Below are positions 4,922 through 11,786 of a stretch of 30,357 bases of DNA, one piece after another. A program made the position numbers and the translations under genes. Within the stretch, counting starts at the first letter, position 1. The number at the start of each line of letters is the position of its first letter. The notes under the pieces were generated by a model. The model ran no database searches, was not told the DNA's origin, and was given only the letters and a program-made list of their open reading frames with translations. The DNA is from Atribacterota bacterium (GTDB lineage Bacteria > Atribacterota > Phoenicimicrobiia > Phoenicimicrobiales > Phoenicimicrobiaceae): positions 1-30,357 of the forward strand of contig DAOUTX010000001.1 of assembly GCA_030668465.1 (NCBI GenBank), read 5' to 3'.

Positions 4922-6105
4922 TATTCTCCACTCCTTATTACTTCAATAGGTCTCATTGAAGCTGCCTTAAATGCCGGATACAGTCCTGAAATTATACCTA
5001 TAATTATTACTCCCAGGAAAGAATAAACTAAAAGATCGGGAGTAATTAAGAGTAATCTACCACCTGGGGCATAAGGCATTACTTTTCTTACTAAAAGTTC
5101 GGTCAAATTTCCACCAAAAATCGCAATAACTGAGCCAAAGATACCACCTAAAGTACAAATAATAAGTGTTTCCATCCAGATGAGTTTAAATATATCTGAC
5201 CTTGAGGCTCCTATTGCCTTCATAATACCTATTTCTTGTGTTCGCTCGAAGACGCTCATTAATATGGTATTAATAACCCCAATAATAGCTACAAATATTG
5301 CGATAAAGGCAACAGACATAATCAATATTTTAGCTGAATTTACCAGATTTAAGATTGTCCCTTTAACCTGGCTCATGCTTATTACTTGAATGCTGGCAAT
5401 TGGATATAGCCTCTCTTCAAATTCTGAAATCTTCTCAATTTGTTTTAGCTTGATACCGATACCTGTCAGTTTGCCTTCTATATCAAAGACTCTTTGAGTT
5501 GTTTTCAGAGGTAAAAATACTGCTCCATCTTCCTGAGTAGCTGTTCTTTCAAAGATGCCCACAATAATTAAAGTAATATCTTTATCCGGTATGGAAATTT
5601 TATCTCCAACTGATTTTTGTTCTGATTCTGCTGCTTCGTATCCTAAAATTGCTTCATTAGCATTTTCGGCTGAGAACCATCCTCCAGATTTAAACTTAAC
5701 ATTTGGCTTAAGTTCAATGTAGCTTTTTTCGATTCCTAAATAATTAATAAAACCACCTTTACCGCCTTGTTTTTCCGGATCATAAGCTAATTGAGCAAGG
5801 AGTGGTGTAATCTTATCAATATCAGGATCACTGGTTATTTGATTATAGATATCCTCATCCATAAATCTAAGGCCTGCTTCTCCACTAAGTATCATAGTTG
5901 CTGCCTCGTAAGGGCAACCTTTGGCTGTTACAATAACTTGATATCCCATTTTATCGACATCAGAGGTTAATGCTTCTTGATACCCGGCATTAAAACCTAA
6001 AAGAGCGACTAAAACTGCTACTGCTACTGCTACTCCACCAATGGTTAAAAAAGAGCGGGATTTTCTCCGTTTCAAATTCTTATAAGCTAAAATAAAAAAT
6101 TTCAT
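4921..6105 (-). CDS. MacB/FtsX-family ABC permease (4 TM with a large periplasmic domain)
   Basis: RRKSRSFLTIGGVAVAVA TM1, periplasmic domain, NTILMSVFERTQEIGIMKAIGA, C-terminal GLYPAFKAASMRPIEVIR. Confidence 0.93.
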   Translation of the reverse strand: MKFFILAYKNLKRRKSRSFLTIGGVAVAVAVLVALLGFNAGYQEALTSDVDKMGYQVIVTAKGCPYEAATMILSGEAGLRFMDEDIYNQITSDPDIDKITPLLAQLAYDPEKQGGKGGFINYLGIEKSYIELKPNVKFKSGGWFSAENANEAILGYEAAESEQKSVGDKISIPDKDITLIIVGIFERTATQEDGAVFLPLKTTQRVFDIEGKLTGIGIKLKQIEKISEFEERLYPIASIQVISMSQVKGTILNLVNSAKILIMSVAFIAIFVAIIGVINTILMSVFERTQEIGIMKAIGASRSDIFKLIWMETLIICTLGGIFGSVIAIFGGNLTELLVRKVMPYAPGGRLLLITPDLLVYSFLGVIIIGIISGLYPAFKAASMRPIEVIRSGE

Positions 6106-6497
6106 TAAAATTCAACTCCCTTTCCATTAATGGTCATTCTTCCATTTCTATTCTCCGGTACCCCTTCTACAACTACCTTTTTCCCCACTTTTGGAGGAAT
6201 ACTAAGACCTGAAGGATTAATATCTACATAAATTGTACCTGTCTTATCTTCCAAAAAGAACCAGCATCCTGAGGAGCATTCTCGGACAATCTCTCCCTCC
6301 AATCTGACTGTTTGGTTAAGATATTCATTCGGACTAGTATAAATATCTTTTACGCTGGTAACTTTTTTTTCGGTAATATCAACACCATACCTCTCACTCT
6401 TATTGCTACCATTGCCACTACAACCTGAAACGCTCAATATGACTAATAAAATAATTAGTAATGCAGCAATTAATCTAATCTTCTTTGTTTTTCTCAT
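6105..6497 (-). CDS. OB-fold (DUF4920/BOF-like) lipoprotein with a CxxGC motif
   Basis: Start moved to ATG 6497 (AGGAGA upstream; the track uses 6527). Lipobox VSGC; VRLEGEIVRECSSGCWFFLEDKTGTIYVD...GKKVVVEG. The TAA overlaps the permease ATG. Confidence 0.7.
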   Translation of the reverse strand: MRKTKKIRLIAALLIILLVILSVSGCSGNGSNKSERYGVDITEKKVTSVKDIYTSPNEYLNQTVRLEGEIVRECSSGCWFFLEDKTGTIYVDINPSGLSIPPKVGKKVVVEGVPENRNGRMTINGKGVEF

Positions 6498-6587
6498 CTT
6501 TTCTCCTTTTTTTACAAAAATAATCATAACACCTACCCTAATTCATATTTAGGCATTACAAATGGTTTCGGAAAAACTCTTTTATGT

Positions 6588-6619
6588 ATTACTACTTATT
6601 CTATCAAATAAGTAGTAAT
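6588..6619. promoter_or_regulatory. Palindromic operator, copy A (ATTACTACT-N14-AGTAGTAAT)
   Basis: Perfect 13-bp arms ATTACTACTTATT / AATAAGTAGTAAT around CTATCA; same outer arms and spacing as the site at 11787-11818. Confidence 0.75.
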
Positions 6620-6670
6620 TAAATTTAAAAAAATAAAGTACCTTGCCTATTTATTTTAACTATTAATAGA

Positions 6671-6687
6671 AGCAATTATTGTGCCAA
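6671..6687 (-). promoter_or_regulatory. Sigma54 -24/-12 promoter
   Basis: Minus strand reads TTGGCACAATAATTGCT, i.e. TGGCAC-N5-TTGCT, correctly oriented about 175 bp upstream of the lipoprotein start. Confidence 0.7.
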
Positions 6688-7026
6688 TTTATAAAGTTTA
6701 ATGTAAGAATATTTATTTTTAAAACGTATTCGGTGAAATAGTTGATAAATAAAGATCTTACTGATTCTCATTTAAAAAAATATTAAATAATATTTCTAAA
6801 CATTATTTAATCAATATTAATCGCCTTACCAGAAAGGGCAAACTTTTCTCATTTATCTACTAGAAACTGGGCAATTTTTTCCCATTAACTTCTTTTTCTG
6901 TGTTTTTAAAATAAATTACCTGGCCTATTTATAGAAGATTTATAATTATCCAAAAATTAAAAGCTCCTATGCTGGCAATTAATTTTATTTCCCAAAATCA
7001 AAAATGTATTTTTTCCTATTCTTAAA

Positions 7027-7218
7027 CTAACAACATCCGTGCAGTGGTGGTTGATGTTTCTCCGCCTTCTCAATGTATTTTTCGGGATTATCATCAAACT
7101 CTTTTTTACATCCTGGTGCACAAAAATAATAAGCTTTTTCTTTATATTCACTCTTGAACTTTGCTGTCTTTTCATCTACTTCCATTTTGCATATCGGATC
7201 AATAACCACATTGGTCAC
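7027..7218 (-). CDS. Small YHS-domain protein with a His/Cys tail
   Basis: DPICKMEV...YKEKAYYFCAPGCKKEFDDNPEKY, then HQPPLHGCC; AAGGAGG RBS; starts 7 bp after the copA stop. Confidence 0.9.
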   Translation of the reverse strand: MTNVVIDPICKMEVDEKTAKFKSEYKEKAYYFCAPGCKKEFDDNPEKYIEKAEKHQPPLHGCC

Positions 7219-7225
7219 CTCCTTT

Positions 7226-9955
7226 TTATGTTGAAATTTCCTTTACCGGTGGTACATACTTTTTTAACATCAGAGAAAGGCTTATCACAGTTACAGAGCT
7301 CATAGCCATAGCTAACCCTGCAAGTTCAGGCCTAAAAGTAATTCCGAAAAAAGGGTATAATATTCCTGCCGCTACCGGAATTAGAGCAGTATTATAAGCA
7401 AAAGCCCAAAATATATTTTGTTTAATTCTCGATATCACTTTTTTACTTAATTGTATAGCTGCCACTGCATCCAAAAGATCATCCTTTATAAGTACTATAT
7501 CTCCGGTTTCTATTGCTACATCTGTCCCGCTGCCTATAGCAATACCCACATCTGCCTGAGCAAGGGCTGGTGCATCATTAATTCCATCACCTACAAAGGC
7601 AACTACCTCCCCTTTCTCTTGAAGTTTTTGTACTTCCTTTGCTTTATCATGAGGTAAGACTTCTGCTAACACATTTACAATTCCAGCTTGTTTGGCGATT
7701 GCGTTTGCAGTTCTAATATTATCACCGGTAATCATAAAAATATTAAATCTCATATCTTTAAATTCCTTAATTGCACTTTTGGTTGTTCCTTTTAACGTAT
7801 CAGTAATAGCTATCATACCAGCCATCTTGTTATTAAAAGCAATCAGCATTACTGTCTTTCCTTCGTTTTCAAATTGAAAAATATTGTTCTCAATCCCTTC
7901 AGGTAGTAAAATATTTTTCTCTTTTAAAAGAATTCTGTTGCCTATTAGTATTTCTTTTTCTTCTACTTTTGCTATTACACCTTTCCCCCTAAAAGTGTTA
8001 AAATATTCGCTACTAAGAAGTTCAATCCCACTATCTATTGATTTTTTTACAATTGCTTCAGCAAGAGGATGTTTAGAATTCTTTTCCACACTTGCCGTAA
8101 ATTTTAGTAGTGTTCTATTTTCAACTTCAATACCGATTATATCTGTAACCTCCGGTTTCCCTTTAGTAAGAGTTCCGGTTTTATCAAATATTATAGTGGT
8201 CAATTTCTCAGATCTTTCCAGAGCTTCTCCATTTTTAATAAGAACACCAAGCTCAGCTCCCCGGCCTACTCCTACCGTCACAGCAGTAGGAGTAGCCAGA
8301 CCAAGTGCACACGGGCAAGCAATAACTAAAACTGAAATTAAATTAGTTAACGCGAAAAGAAAACTATTATCAAGAATTAAATACCAGACCACAAAAGAAA
8401 GAAGAGCAATTATTAATACTGTGGGAATAAAATAATTTACCGCTTTATCTGCAATTCTTTGAATGGGTGGCTTTGAGCTCTGAGCTTCTTCTACAAGTTT
8501 TATGATTTGAGATAGCATGGTATCTCTTCCTACTTTGGTTGCTACAAATCTTATTACACCATTTTTATTAATGGTTCCTCCAACAATCTTGTCACCTTTT
8601 TCTTTTAATGGTGAAATGGACTCTCCAGTAATCATTGATTCATCCACAAAACTCTCACCATCAATAACTTCACCATCCACAGGGATTTTTTCTCCTGGTT
8701 TGACTATTAATATATCATTTAATGCCACCTTTTCTATGGATATTTCCTGCTCTTCAAAAATTGAGAGCAGTTTACTAATCAACATATCTTTAGGTGGATA
8801 TACAAAGATTCTATTATTATAATTGTAAACTCTGCAGATAAATAATTTATTAACCTTTCCTTCTATATCTCTTTTATTCAATAAAATAGTTGGTGATCCG
8901 TAAAAGGAATAATCTTTAAAATTCTCTTTAGTTACTTCTATTAACTTGATAGGGGCAGAAATATTCAACTTCTTTAGAGCATCTTTTACTTGTTCTGCTG
9001 ACTTGTTATAGTTCGGGCAATCTCTAAAATATAAGATTTCTATATCTATATTTTTGGGCCTTAAAATGTCAGCGGTCTTTGGTTGTAAACCCATTAATTT
9101 TTTAATCGCTTCTGATGTCTTCCCTTTTGCCCTTGATTCCAAATACCGTCCCATGGTAAGAAAGGTAGCTAAAAAAATTGCTGTCTCATAAAATAAAAAT
9201 CTACTGGAAAGTATAAAATTAAAAGTAGCCAAAAGACTTGCTCCAAAAGCAACCCCTATCCCCATAGAATACATTACATCCATATTTAAACTCTTATTTT
9301 TTAAAGAACGATAAGCAGCAGTAAAAATAGGATGGCTTATATAAATAAAAGCAGGAGTTGAAATAAGCAACATTAAATAAGCCGTTGAAATAGGTAAATT
9401 AATAGGAATATACATAAGAATCATCAAAAGAGTACCGGTAGTAAACCCCACAATAATTCGGTTGCGTTTTTCTTTTAAATCCTTTTCTCTTGTAACTTTT
9501 TCAAAATCTTCTGTTTTTTCTCCTTCTATACCTAAGAATTGATATCCGGCTTCTTCAATATTTCTTCTCATGTCGGCTTGGGTTACAATATTTGGATTAT
9601 AAATAACAATTGCTTTTTCACCAGCAAGATTAATATTAACCTCTATGATTCCATCCAATCTCAGGAGAGAATTTTCTATTGTTTTTACGCAAGTAGCACA
9701 AGTCATCCCTCCAATTTTTAGAACGACTTTATCGTTTATTATTTGGTAACCTGCGTTCTTTATGGCTTTGTCTAAATCAGTAAACCTTAGCTTTAAAAAA
9801 TCATATTCTACTGCAACGCTCTCGTTCCCAAGATTCACTTGCGCATTGATGACACCATTCAGATTTATTAATGACTTCTCAATTGTTGTGGCACACATTG
9901 CGCAAGTCATTCCAGAAATCTTAAGTTCAATTTTTTTAGTCTTTTCCAAAAACAT
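7226..9955 (-). CDS. copA: Cu(I)-exporting P1B-1 ATPase with two N-terminal HMA domains and an extra ~100-aa insertion
   Basis: GMTCAMC and GMTCATC HMA motifs, TGES, CPCALGLATP, DKTGT, HP, GDGINDAPALA, YN and MAMSS Cu(I) ligands; insertion at about aa 300-400. Confidence 0.96.
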   Translation of the reverse strand: MFLEKTKKIELKISGMTCAMCATTIEKSLINLNGVINAQVNLGNESVAVEYDFLKLRFTDLDKAIKNAGYQIINDKVVLKIGGMTCATCVKTIENSLLRLDGIIEVNINLAGEKAIVIYNPNIVTQADMRRNIEEAGYQFLGIEGEKTEDFEKVTREKDLKEKRNRIIVGFTTGTLLMILMYIPINLPISTAYLMLLISTPAFIYISHPIFTAAYRSLKNKSLNMDVMYSMGIGVAFGASLLATFNFILSSRFLFYETAIFLATFLTMGRYLESRAKGKTSEAIKKLMGLQPKTADILRPKNIDIEILYFRDCPNYNKSAEQVKDALKKLNISAPIKLIEVTKENFKDYSFYGSPTILLNKRDIEGKVNKLFICRVYNYNNRIFVYPPKDMLISKLLSIFEEQEISIEKVALNDILIVKPGEKIPVDGEVIDGESFVDESMITGESISPLKEKGDKIVGGTINKNGVIRFVATKVGRDTMLSQIIKLVEEAQSSKPPIQRIADKAVNYFIPTVLIIALLSFVVWYLILDNSFLFALTNLISVLVIACPCALGLATPTAVTVGVGRGAELGVLIKNGEALERSEKLTTIIFDKTGTLTKGKPEVTDIIGIEVENRTLLKFTASVEKNSKHPLAEAIVKKSIDSGIELLSSEYFNTFRGKGVIAKVEEKEILIGNRILLKEKNILLPEGIENNIFQFENEGKTVMLIAFNNKMAGMIAITDTLKGTTKSAIKEFKDMRFNIFMITGDNIRTANAIAKQAGIVNVLAEVLPHDKAKEVQKLQEKGEVVAFVGDGINDAPALAQADVGIAIGSGTDVAIETGDIVLIKDDLLDAVAAIQLSKKVISRIKQNIFWAFAYNTALIPVAAGILYPFFGITFRPELAGLAMAMSSVTVISLSLMLKKYVPPVKEIST

Positions 9956-10009
9956 GTTCTTGCCTCATAGACAATTAAATTTTTACTTTTTATTCTTATG
10001 CACAACTCT

Positions 10010-10918
10010 TTAAGGCGGACATTTTCCACATATTGACCTGAATAAGTTAGTACTTAAGTAACGGTCTCCCCGATCAGGTAAAATTACTACGATTATTCCA
10101 GAATCCATTTTTTTGGCCATGCGCAAGGCTCCTACAATTGCAGCACCACTGGACATGCCTACAAAAATACCTTCTTTAGTGGCAAGTAATCTGGTTACCT
10201 CGTAAGCTGGGTCATCCTCAACGGTAATTTTCTCATCTAATTTTTCTGAATGATATATCTTGGGGACAATTGATTCTTGCATATTTTTAAGCCCCTGTAT
10301 TTTATGCGCCATTGTTGGTTCAACTCCTACAACTTTAATTTGCGGCTTCTTTTCCTTGAGATATTTACCCGTCCCCATTAGAGTTCCTCCGGTCCCCATA
10401 CCTGCTACAAATACATCAATTTCTCCCTTGGTTTGCGAAAATATTTCTGGCCCGGTGGTCTCATAGTGAGCAAGAACATTATTCTCGTTTTCAAATTGAT
10501 TGGGCATATAATATTTATCAGGCTCTTCGGTAATGAGCTGATGAGCTTTTCTAATAGCACCATCTGTAGTTTCCTTGGCAGGAGTGAGTACAACTTCAGC
10601 ATCAAATGCCTCGATAATACTACGCCTTTCTAAACTCACACATTCAGGCATACAAAGTTTTACTTTATATCCCCTGGCTGCTCCTATCATTGCCAGGGCA
10701 ATTCCAGTATTTCCTGAAGTAGGTTCAAGTATTGTTTTTCCTTTGATAAGTTCACCTGACTCTTCTGCTTTTTTGAGCATATAATAGGCAGGACGATCTT
10801 TTACTGAACCACCAGGATTACTTCCTTCAAGCTTGCCAAAAATTCTTACCTTTGAAATTCCATTTAGATTATTTAACTCAACAAGCGGCGTACTGCCGAT
10901 AGCGGACAACAGGTTCAT
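10010..10918 (-). CDS. cysM: Cysteine synthase (O-acetylserine sulfhydrylase, CysM/CysK family)
   Basis: KLEGSNPGGSVKDR (PLP lysine), EPTSGNTG, NQFEN, GMGTGGT, GMSSGA; C-terminus CGKCPP. CysM versus CysK is a judgement call. Confidence 0.9.
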   Translation of the reverse strand: MNLLSAIGSTPLVELNNLNGISKVRIFGKLEGSNPGGSVKDRPAYYMLKKAEESGELIKGKTILEPTSGNTGIALAMIGAARGYKVKLCMPECVSLERRSIIEAFDAEVVLTPAKETTDGAIRKAHQLITEEPDKYYMPNQFENENNVLAHYETTGPEIFSQTKGEIDVFVAGMGTGGTLMGTGKYLKEKKPQIKVVGVEPTMAHKIQGLKNMQESIVPKIYHSEKLDEKITVEDDPAYEVTRLLATKEGIFVGMSSGAAIVGALRMAKKMDSGIIVVILPDRGDRYLSTNLFRSICGKCPP

Positions 10919-10988
10919 AATTTTCTCCTAAACGTCTTTTTATTTCCTAATTTTTTATAACTATTTTATATCCCGTATAAGGAATTAA

Positions 10989-11303
10989 TTAACTTTTCAA
11001 AACTTTTTTCATTTTTTCAAATTCTTTTTCGGTAATTTCTCCCTTTGCAAATCGTTCTTTGATAATATCTAAGGAAGTTTCGCTAAATCCCCCAGTATAT
11101 CTATTTGATTTTGTATTGGTAATGATAAAATAAATTATCAATCCAATAACAATTGCAAATATGAACATCATAAACATTCCCCCTCCATAGCCAAAATTCA
11201 TCATTTGATTCCACCCCCATGTAAATCCACAGCCCTCTACATCAGCAAATGCAAGAACTGGAAAAATAAATAATATTACAAAAACCATAATCAATACCCT
11301 CAT
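10989..11303 (-). CDS. SHOCT-domain membrane protein with a Met/Gly-rich segment
   Basis: Start moved to ATG 11303 (GAGGTG RBS). Signal-like N-terminus, WGWNQMMNFGYGGGMFMM, a TM segment, C-terminal LDIIKERFAKGEITEKEFEKMKKVL. Confidence 0.85.
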   Translation of the reverse strand: MRVLIMVFVILFIFPVLAFADVEGCGFTWGWNQMMNFGYGGGMFMMFIFAIVIGLIIYFIITNTKSNRYTGGFSETSLDIIKERFAKGEITEKEFEKMKKVLKS

Positions 11304-11352
11304 AAATTTCACCTCTTTTTTATTTAAAATATGCGAAATAGGATAGTAATAA

Positions 11353-11769
11353 TTAGTCTATTTCTTTTTGCGAGTTCATTAAATCCTCCAAAGTAATAGA
11401 GCTAAGTTCATCGGAAATTTTTTCATCCAATTTTTCCCAGACACCTCGAGTTGCACATTTGGAAACCCTGGAACAAATAGAGGGATTTTTTACACATTCC
11501 ACACAACTTATGCCCCCTTCAAGGGTTTGCACAATCTCTTTGAGAGTTATTTGGGAAGGAGATTTAGCTAACTTATACCCTCCGTGGGCTCCTCGAGAAG
11601 AGCTTATCAACCCGCTTGCCCTAAGGGGGATAACCAGGTGACTTAAATATTTTTCGGAAATCTCTTCCTTTTCGGCAATATCCTTCAAAAAGATAGTTCC
11701 CTTATCAAAATTTAAGGCTAATTCTAACATTAACCTTGTACCATATCTTGCTCTGGTAGAGAGCCTCAT
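11353..11769 (-). CDS. Rrf2-family transcriptional regulator (IscR/CymR-like, Cys-rich)
   Basis: Start moved to ATG 11769 (GAGGTG RBS). MRLSTRARYG, EISEKYLSHL, SSRGAHGGYKLAK, EGGISCVECVKNPSICSRVSKCATRGVW. Confidence 0.95.
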   Translation of the reverse strand: MRLSTRARYGTRLMLELALNFDKGTIFLKDIAEKEEISEKYLSHLVIPLRASGLISSSRGAHGGYKLAKSPSQITLKEIVQTLEGGISCVECVKNPSICSRVSKCATRGVWEKLDEKISDELSSITLEDLMNSQKEID

Positions 11770-11786
11770 AAAATTCACCTCGCTTA

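Follow-up and report, generated by a model that had tools for sequence, protein, structure and literature searches.

We analysed a 30,357-nucleotide (nt) stretch of DNA from an Atribacterota bacterium (positions 1 to 30,357 of contig DAOUTX010000001.1, assembly GCA_030668465.1; hereafter the window) and found that its copA gene almost certainly encodes a complete P1B-1 Cu(I) export ATPase in which an intact thioredoxin-fold domain of the DF family is nested in the actuator domain (A-domain), where it occupies the tip of the first beta-hairpin. Judging from the family context, we read this nested domain as a tethered thioredoxin-like thiol/disulfide unit, a reading to which we assign a probability of roughly 0.45. 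P-type ATPases are among the best-understood membrane machines, and to our knowledge P1B pumps have so far been reported to carry accessory domains at their N- or C-termini only; we found no description of an A-domain insertion or a nested layout in P1B pumps in the literature searched. The CopA and DF/DUF2703 families are themselves known, and the novelty lies in an accessory domain that is nested in the A-domain instead of being terminal. The gene and the parts of its 909-amino-acid (aa) product that carry the argument are the following (positions are those of the window).

7226 to 9955, minus strand: copA, encoding the 909-aa P1B-1 Cu(I)-exporting ATPase (P0001) with the nested domain (open reading frame; TIGR01511, TIGR01525, Pfam).
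9743 to 9925, minus strand: HMA domain 1, with CAMC at aa 18-21 (nt 9893-9904; PF00403, 62.9 bits).
9539 to 9724, minus strand: HMA domain 2, with CATC at aa 86-89 (nt 9689-9700; PF00403, 57.8 bits).
9059 to 9091, minus strand: GLQPKTADILR, aa 289-299, the first strand of the A-domain, directly before the insert (alignment to insert-less CopAs; strand 294-299 in the full-length model).
8756 to 9058, minus strand: nested DF-family/DUF2703 thioredoxin-fold domain, aa 300-400 (NF049942, PF10865, AlphaFold2 (AF2), VIA-align, AFDB clusters).
9017 to 9019, minus strand: codon of Cys313, in C-P-N-Y at the N-terminus of helix 1 (aligned to the first Cys of 1FO5/1NHO; family alignment).
8888 to 8899, minus strand: G-S-P-T loop, aa 353-356 (aligned to the V-P-T/V-P-A cis-Pro loop of 1FO5/1NHO).
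8834 to 8836, minus strand: codon of Cys374, in C-R-V-Y in the extension after strand 3 (family alignment; TGA at the same position in locus L015, described below).
8396 to 8755, minus strand: remaining A-domain, aa 401-520, with TGE at nt 8621-8629 (PF00122 match 401-568).
8309 to 8317, minus strand: transmembrane CPC metal site, aa 547-549 (motif check).
8171 to 8185, minus strand: DKTGT phosphorylation motif, aa 591-595 (motif check).

The pump scores 591.4 bits against TIGR01511 (cut-off 397) and 604.2 bits against TIGR01525 (cut-off 346), and it has the Pfam domains E1-E2_ATPase, Hydrolase and HMA. An initial annotation of the window, made from the sequence alone, had stated that the catalytic motifs of CopA are intact on either side of the insert, and we found every one of them: the two HMA CxxC motifs (aa 18 and 86), TGE (443), CPC (547) and DKTGT (591); FAYNTALIP (YN), MAMSS (MxxSS) and GDGINDAP can likewise be read in the translation. 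Judged by all sequence-level criteria of the family, the 909-aa protein is a complete P1B-1 Cu(I) ATPase, with the same domain set and signature motifs as the P1B-1 CopAs of A. fulgidus, L. pneumophila and E. coli and as ATP7A/B. It differs from these in having a folded domain of ~98 residues in the first hairpin of the A-domain. Outside the insert it is 70-77% identical to ordinary CopAs of 808-820 aa.

The closest relatives that lack the insert (808-820 aa) read K-T-A-x-V-I-R-D-N-N-E-V-E-I-P-I-E-D-V at the hairpin, and alignment to them shows ~98 additional residues between R299 and E401 in place of a hairpin turn of 2-3 residues. The position that had been proposed initially (aa 300-400, nt 8756-9058, in frame, in the first A-domain beta-hairpin) proved exact in this alignment, and the motifs then quoted from the insert are all present (YFRDCPNY with C313, GSPT at 353-356, CRVY with C374, and YPP). 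The transmembrane helix that precedes the A-domain has a long cytoplasmic extension, and the insertion point is the first beta-hairpin past it. Consistent with this, the Pfam E1-E2_ATPase match begins only at residue 401, residues 300-400 are covered by DUF2703 and a weak Thioredoxin_3 match, and the strands bordering the insert span 294-299 and 401-406 in the full-length model. Because both termini of the domain leave and rejoin the same hairpin, we take it to be an independently folded cytoplasmic module that sits on the A-domain and moves with the pump cycle.

The initial annotation had further proposed that the insert is thioredoxin-like, and this was borne out by profile searches with the insert alone (Pfam, NCBIfam) as well as by structure prediction and comparison (AF2, Foldseek, VIA-align). 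Specifically, the NCBIfam model NF049942 (“DF family (seleno)protein”) matches the insert at 72.0 bits, a narrow margin above its cut-off of 70, and gives 71.3 bits in a six-frame scan of the genome. PF10865 (DUF2703) matches the insert alone at 28.8 bits (gathering threshold 23.6) and, within the whole protein, reaches 23.3 bits, just below the threshold. When the insert was compared by phmmer with 1.8 billion representatives, we obtained 518 matches; among the best 150 of these, nearly all are free-standing proteins of 100-130 aa that are 30-47% identical to the insert, and only one other protein has the nested layout. This library of 50%-identity representatives did not yield the window's own cluster, for which an insert-less CopA probably stands there; the search therefore under-counts fused pumps, and nested architectures may be hidden in such a library. 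The insert thus shares with the free proteins of NF049942/PF10865 their signature and predicted fold, and scores above both curated cut-offs, but these proteins are typically free or terminal whereas the copy in the window is nested inside another domain.

An alignment of 109 DF members yields the signature L-Y-F-x-x-C-P-x-[YWH] ... F-x-G-S-P-[TS] ... C-R-x-Y ... P-P-[KR]-[ED], every element of which is kept in the insert (C313, P314, Y316, F351, G353-S-P-T356, C374, R375, Y377 and P387-P388). Both cysteines singled out in the initial annotation are conserved across the family (C313 in 108/109 rows and C374 in 105/109), as are P355 (109/109), R375 (108/109) and Y377 (107/109). The fourth position of C-P-x-x is Y, W or H in 84/109 rows, and Cys falls outside the six most frequent residues at this position. 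At residue 373, which directly precedes Cys374, all 4 sequencing runs compared differ from the window (nt 8838-8839), changing the codon from Ile to Gly; Gly is the commonest family residue at this position.

AF2, run on the insert with the family alignment, gave a model with a mean predicted local distance difference test score (pLDDT) of 95.6, in which the order of elements is strand 6-10, helix 17-30, strand 37-41, strand 57-60, a loop with short strands 78-80 and 83-85, and helix 90-100. This predicted beta-alpha-beta...beta-beta-alpha topology is that of the thioredoxin fold. All of the top 50 VIA-align matches to the model have a thioredoxin fold (Z up to 8.2; 80-82 residues aligned at about 3 A), and AFDB clusters reach template-modelling (TM) scores of up to 0.85. 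Foldseek against PDB gave a probability of 1.00 and TM scores of 0.55-0.70 at E values of only about 3e-3, with no PDB match at E <= 1e-3, so the fold assignment rests on VIA-align, the AFDB clusters and the profile matches. The AFDB matches include small proteins named “alkylmercury lyase” and fusions of the DF domain to MerT, MerC, a low-molecular-weight phosphatase domain and ArsD. The automatic name “Alkylmercury lyase” is attached to many DF/DUF2703 proteins (90-180 aa) despite their thioredoxin fold and although they are too short for MerB; the name looks like a propagated misnomer.

Among solved structures, the family profile best matches small thioredoxin/glutaredoxin-like proteins of archaea, namely 1FO5 (M. 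jannaschii Mj0307; E 4e-8) as well as 1NHO and 1ILO (both M. thermautotrophicus). In this comparison Cys313 aligns with the first Cys of C-P-x-C in 1FO5/1NHO, and GSPT aligns with their cis-Pro loop. By contrast, the second Cys of their CPxC is a Tyr in the insert, and the loop of ~20 residues plus hairpin that the insert has between strand 3 and its last strands, the family-specific extension in which Cys374 sits, is absent from them. DSSP assigns isolated beta-bridges to Ser354 and Cys374 of the AF2 model, as would fit a Cys374 that packs on the cis-Pro loop beside Cys313. The CxxC of classical thioredoxins and glutaredoxins is replaced by C-P-N-Y, so that the insert is not a classical thioredoxin. 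Nor do Pfam and NCBIfam scans of the insert yield any match to the ArsD, Sco or CopG families, and the three Cys of ArsD, the CxxxC plus His of Sco and the CxCC of CopG are all absent; these thioredoxin-fold proteins, in which cysteines handle thiophilic metals for a transporter or enzyme, show how the domain may work, without its belonging to any of them.

We next consider the possibility that the insert is an artefact or a neutral passenger, i.e., that it arose by chimeric assembly or by insertion of an intein-like or mobile element, or is foreign DNA in decay. What first hinted at foreign DNA was base composition: the initial annotation had put the insert at ~28% GC, and its GC is indeed low (27.1%, compared with 34.4% for the rest of copA). 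This value is, however, uninformative about origin. At third codon positions, GC (GC3) is practically equal, with 25.7% in the insert and 23.9% elsewhere in copA. Encoding the amino acids of the insert with the codon usage of copA would give 26.7% GC; amino-acid composition therefore accounts for the low value, the insert being rich in Lys, Asn, Ile and Tyr, and we rejected low GC as a mark of foreign origin. The Pfam and NCBIfam scans found no intein splicing blocks or endonuclease domains in the insert, the only family matches being DUF2703, the weak Thioredoxin_3 and DF. Pairwise ratios of non-synonymous to synonymous substitution rates (dN/dS) between near-complete Atribacterota copies are 0.11-0.31 for the insert, 0.13-0.20 for the rest of the gene and 0.13-0.37 for the HMA domains, meaning that the insert is under purifying selection.

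The junctions, whose support the initial annotation had marked as a concern, are bridged by contigs from independent studies. A single 2294-nt contig covers 8400-9400, and with it both junctions, with two differences; each junction is also bridged by separate contigs, including contigs of two RNA libraries (where DNA carry-over is possible). We also sampled words from an 801-nt stretch that includes both junctions: 50% or more of them occur in each of 16 public runs, which come from about a dozen studies and are cold-seep and marine-sediment metagenomes. Whether the internal fusion recurs had been a further point to check, and a search with residues 285-420 returned 58 clusters at 90% identity that carry the layout, mostly of 909 aa; identity across these residues is 67-92%. 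The assemblies concerned are those of ENA, JGI, NCBI and Logan, and the clusters that are named are Atribacterota metagenome-assembled genomes (MAGs). With 58 clusters spread across these assemblies the nested layout is neither chance nor an assembly artefact, and the clusters, bridging contigs, composition and dN/dS together refute the artefact or passenger explanation.

The DF model matches 9 of 86 Atribacterota species genomes, all from one family, and wherever the contig suffices the match lies inside a frame of 912-918 aa. Every CopA ortholog (at least 74% identity) whose region is assembled has the insert, and the other genomes have only paralogs that are ~40% identical. A scan of all GTDB representatives with patterns derived from the insert returned 7 loci, which belong to Atribacterota (Candidatus Sediminicultor, Candidatus Phoenicimicrobium) or to an unclassified bacterial MAG. 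The “new CopA architecture” announced in the initial annotation is thus new in one sense only: it is undescribed in the literature searched, but it is common in public Atribacterota MAG proteins, where the copies bear no more specific annotation than “heavy metal translocating P-type ATPase”, PF10865 being listed for some. The run and record labels of the Atribacterota carriers (JS1-type) are those of cold-seep and marine-sediment metagenomes.

A backbone tree computed without the insert columns places the 13 Atribacterota pumps in one clade with full support. Next to it stand insert-less CopAs in a tight group; outside the insert, their identity to the window's CopA is about 70-74% over the whole alignment and reaches 75-77% in the best local segment, which is the C-terminal 55% of the protein. 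These insert-less neighbours (among P0214-P0275) are labelled Halobacteriota, Methanosarcinales, Methanophagales (ANME-1) and Planctomycetes. The pattern suggests that copper pumps have recently been swapped across domains of life in seep or sediment communities.

Outside this clade the same layout was found in a singleton of 901 aa (P0064) on a 29.6-kb Logan contig, which is 42% identical overall to the window CopA; its DF domain, in which both Cys are present, occupies the corresponding hairpin, and the two inserts are 34% identical. The NFACT protein of that contig is only about 28% identical to its Atribacterota homologues, so its host is an unrelated organism; no relatives of P0064 were found among 5.8 billion proteins. 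The backbone tree requires 2 state changes for presence of the insert, and the weakly resolved domain tree slightly prefers a single insert clade (log-likelihood difference lnL +10.9; approximately unbiased test, p-AU 0.60). Two gains, one gain followed by losses, and transfer of the module between pumps fit the data alike. The presence of a DF domain at the same hairpin of a 42%-identical CopA from an unrelated organism suggests that the site was selected twice or that the module was passed between pumps. A 62-aa YHS-domain gene directly follows the copA of P0064 (L002:7925-10838), and in another protein, P0116, YHS is fused directly to the DF domain.

To learn what the domain may do in the pump, we turned to the DF family elsewhere. 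DUF2703 has been placed in the thioredoxin clan, with fusions to ArsD and MOSC noted (Pawlowski et al. 2010, PMC3091736), and a DUF2703 gene has been reported in an arsenate-induced ars cluster, where a thioredoxin role was proposed (Firrincieli et al. 2019, PMC6514093). Among the DF matches the fusion partners are MerT-HMA, MerC, YHS and PRC-barrel. We further sampled the neighbourhoods of 9 free-standing DF members. The member closest to the insert adjoins, in divergent orientation, the gene of a 695-aa Cu-type P1B ATPase without HMA (TIGR01511, 610 bits); one gene overlaps that of a thioredoxin-disulfide reductase (TIGR01292, 365 bits, above cut-off), one stands in the row ArsR - HMA - DF - MerA (MerA 475 bits, above cut-off), one lies before MerT, one after an SBF-family (Acr3-like) permease and one before an S-adenosylmethionine (SAM) methyltransferase, and 2/9 neighbourhoods were uninformative.

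The remaining DF gene of note (L015:158-865, from Logan SRR15359042) was called as 74 aa and stops at a TGA exactly where Cys374 aligns (T-U-R-I-Y). Its frame runs past the TGA into the next called gene, a thioredoxin-type arsenate reductase (ArsC), and 5 nt beyond the TGA lies the start of a stable hairpin (z -2.7; 0/200 shuffles fold as well). Read in this way, the locus probably encodes a single selenoprotein in which DF and ArsC are fused (DF~ArsC) and which was wrongly divided into two genes. The initial annotation had tied free-standing relatives of the insert to mercury-resistance genes; such relatives exist, and arsenic- and copper-resistance genes have to be added to the list. The DF family is, on these grounds, a thiol/selenol thioredoxin-fold module for Hg, As and Cu systems, and several of its contexts imply electron transfer.

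The initial annotation had put forward a redox or metal-relay module. Several of these observations lead us to prefer the tethered thiol/disulfide unit: selenocysteine at the position of the second Cys, the fusion to ArsC, the thioredoxin reductase (TrxR) partner, the alignment of Cys313 with the thioredoxin nucleophile, the fact that one lineage lost both Cys together (see below), and a TrxR-like gene in the window's genome, whose score of 311 bits is just below the cut-off. The AFDB cluster in which DF is fused to a low-molecular-weight phosphatase domain also leans towards redox chemistry. In such a unit, Cys313, at the N-terminus of helix 1, would take the position of the nucleophile of the thioredoxin CxxC, and Cys374 would come from the family-specific extension to lie against the G-S-P-T (cis-Pro) loop. 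We infer that the two are close enough to cycle between dithiol and disulfide, and a flavoprotein resembling thioredoxin reductase would recharge the module. Its presumed substrate thiols are the Cu(I) cysteine sites of the pump itself (two HMA CxxC and the membrane CPC), which redox activity of the module would keep reduced and loadable; alternatively, the module may convert Cu(II) or thiol adducts by reduction into Cu(I), the form that is transported.

Several points weigh against this reading. CxxC is absent (C-P-N-Y), the partner Cys is 61 residues distant, and the fusions to MerT-HMA, MerC and YHS as well as the mer, ars and Cu-ATPase neighbourhoods suit metal binding equally well. Cysteine oxidation should be rare in the anoxic, sulfidic sediment habitat. 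The full-length CopA model has a mean pLDDT of 75 and a predicted TM score (pTM) of 0.47, and this low pTM leaves the arrangement of domains unfixed, so that a location near the HMA docking site, as proposed in the initial annotation, is conjectural; a complex prediction of the insert (aa 298-402) with HMA2 (aa 74-141) scored 0.02, which counts as evidence neither way. Finally, a lineage of Atribacterota pumps (P0060; at least 3 full contigs) keeps the domain without both Cys, so that some role of the domain has to be Cys-independent. Specifically, P0060, P0291 and P0293 have C313Y and C374R, and P0292 is changed at the second site only; the lineage retains the frame, GSPT, R-x-Y and P-P, with HMA, CPC, TGE and DKTGT intact.

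The same lineage favours the view that the domain is a Cys-independent appendage, i.e., a steric or docking element on the A-domain (serving, for example, autoinhibition, dimerisation or partner recruitment) whose Cys pair is inherited and has no role. A peripheral hairpin can also tolerate a domain whose termini leave and rejoin it. Against this, both Cys are present in 11 other aligned Atribacterota sequences and in the distant P0064, all active-site-like residues of the family are retained, and dN/dS of the insert is as low as that of the HMA domains; we regard a Cys-independent regulatory or structural role as improbable.

The contexts that suit metal binding point to another possibility, a soft-metal relay, in which Cys313 and Cys374 would form a two-coordinate thiolate site for Cu(I) (or Ag(I)/Hg(II)). 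Such a site would be loaded from the cytosol or by the HMA domains and, through the movement of the A-domain, would deliver the metal to the entry site in the membrane. The domain would then substitute for free CopZ as a tethered chaperone, by analogy with ArsD for ArsA or NmerA for MerA. This is what one might expect of a module that is found fused to MerT-HMA, MerC, YHS and ArsD (ArsD in AFDB and in PMC3091736) and whose genes stand in a row between those of an HMA protein and MerA, ahead of MerT, and next to a Cu-ATPase lacking HMA. A selenolate at the position of Cys374 would be an excellent soft-metal ligand, and thioredoxin-fold metallochaperones are known (Sco; CopG, PMC7558416; ArsD, PMC3091736). 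Moreover, no free-standing HMA gene of CopZ size was found in the window's genome and four 91-97% complete relatives that carry the pump (G000, G043, G050, G055 and G056). However, CopZ is likewise missing from genomes of the same family without the pump, so its absence is not specific to pump carriers; the TrxR partner and the fusion to thioredoxin-dependent ArsC favour electron over metal transfer, and the Cys-less lineage retains the domain. Overall, we consider the relay less probable than the thiol/disulfide unit. HMA domains in the five genomes listed are nearly all in frames of P1B-ATPase size, the one exception being a 323-aa frame in G050.

In a self-servicing pump, a redox or metal centre on the actuator, based on thiol (and in relatives on selenol), would be shuttled by the E1/E2 cycle between the HMA domains and the membrane entry site, which would couple export to the thiol-redox state or replace CopZ. 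We offer this wider picture as speculative and tentative.

The nested-domain pump is taxonomically narrow, and the mechanism proposed for it is a hypothesis. Nevertheless, a Cys-bearing domain that is kept by selection on the rotating actuator is a natural experiment on how a regulatory or chaperone function can be wired into the cycle of a pump; in this case, a redox or metal-handling helper may have been built into a copper pump. The DUF2703/DF family, to which no function has been assigned and which is widespread in mercury-, arsenic- and copper-resistance loci, gains a fixed physical partner with which its chemistry can be tested. In ecological terms, the organisms concerned are Atribacterota (JS1-type lineages) of cold seeps and marine sediments.

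The genes around copA are arranged as follows.

10010 to 11778, minus strand: rrf2 - SHOCT membrane protein - cysK, the upstream neighbours of copA (Pfam; same order in relatives).

Together with the genes downstream, the order on the minus strand is rrf2 - SHOCT membrane protein - cysK - copA - orf140 - FtsX/ABC (window 6105-11778). This order is kept at loci of relatives (L004-L010), the upstream part of it at L004, L006, L007 and L010. This suggests a possible tie of cysteine synthesis to copper export under an Rrf2 (CymR-like) regulator. The gap between cysK and copA is 54 nt.

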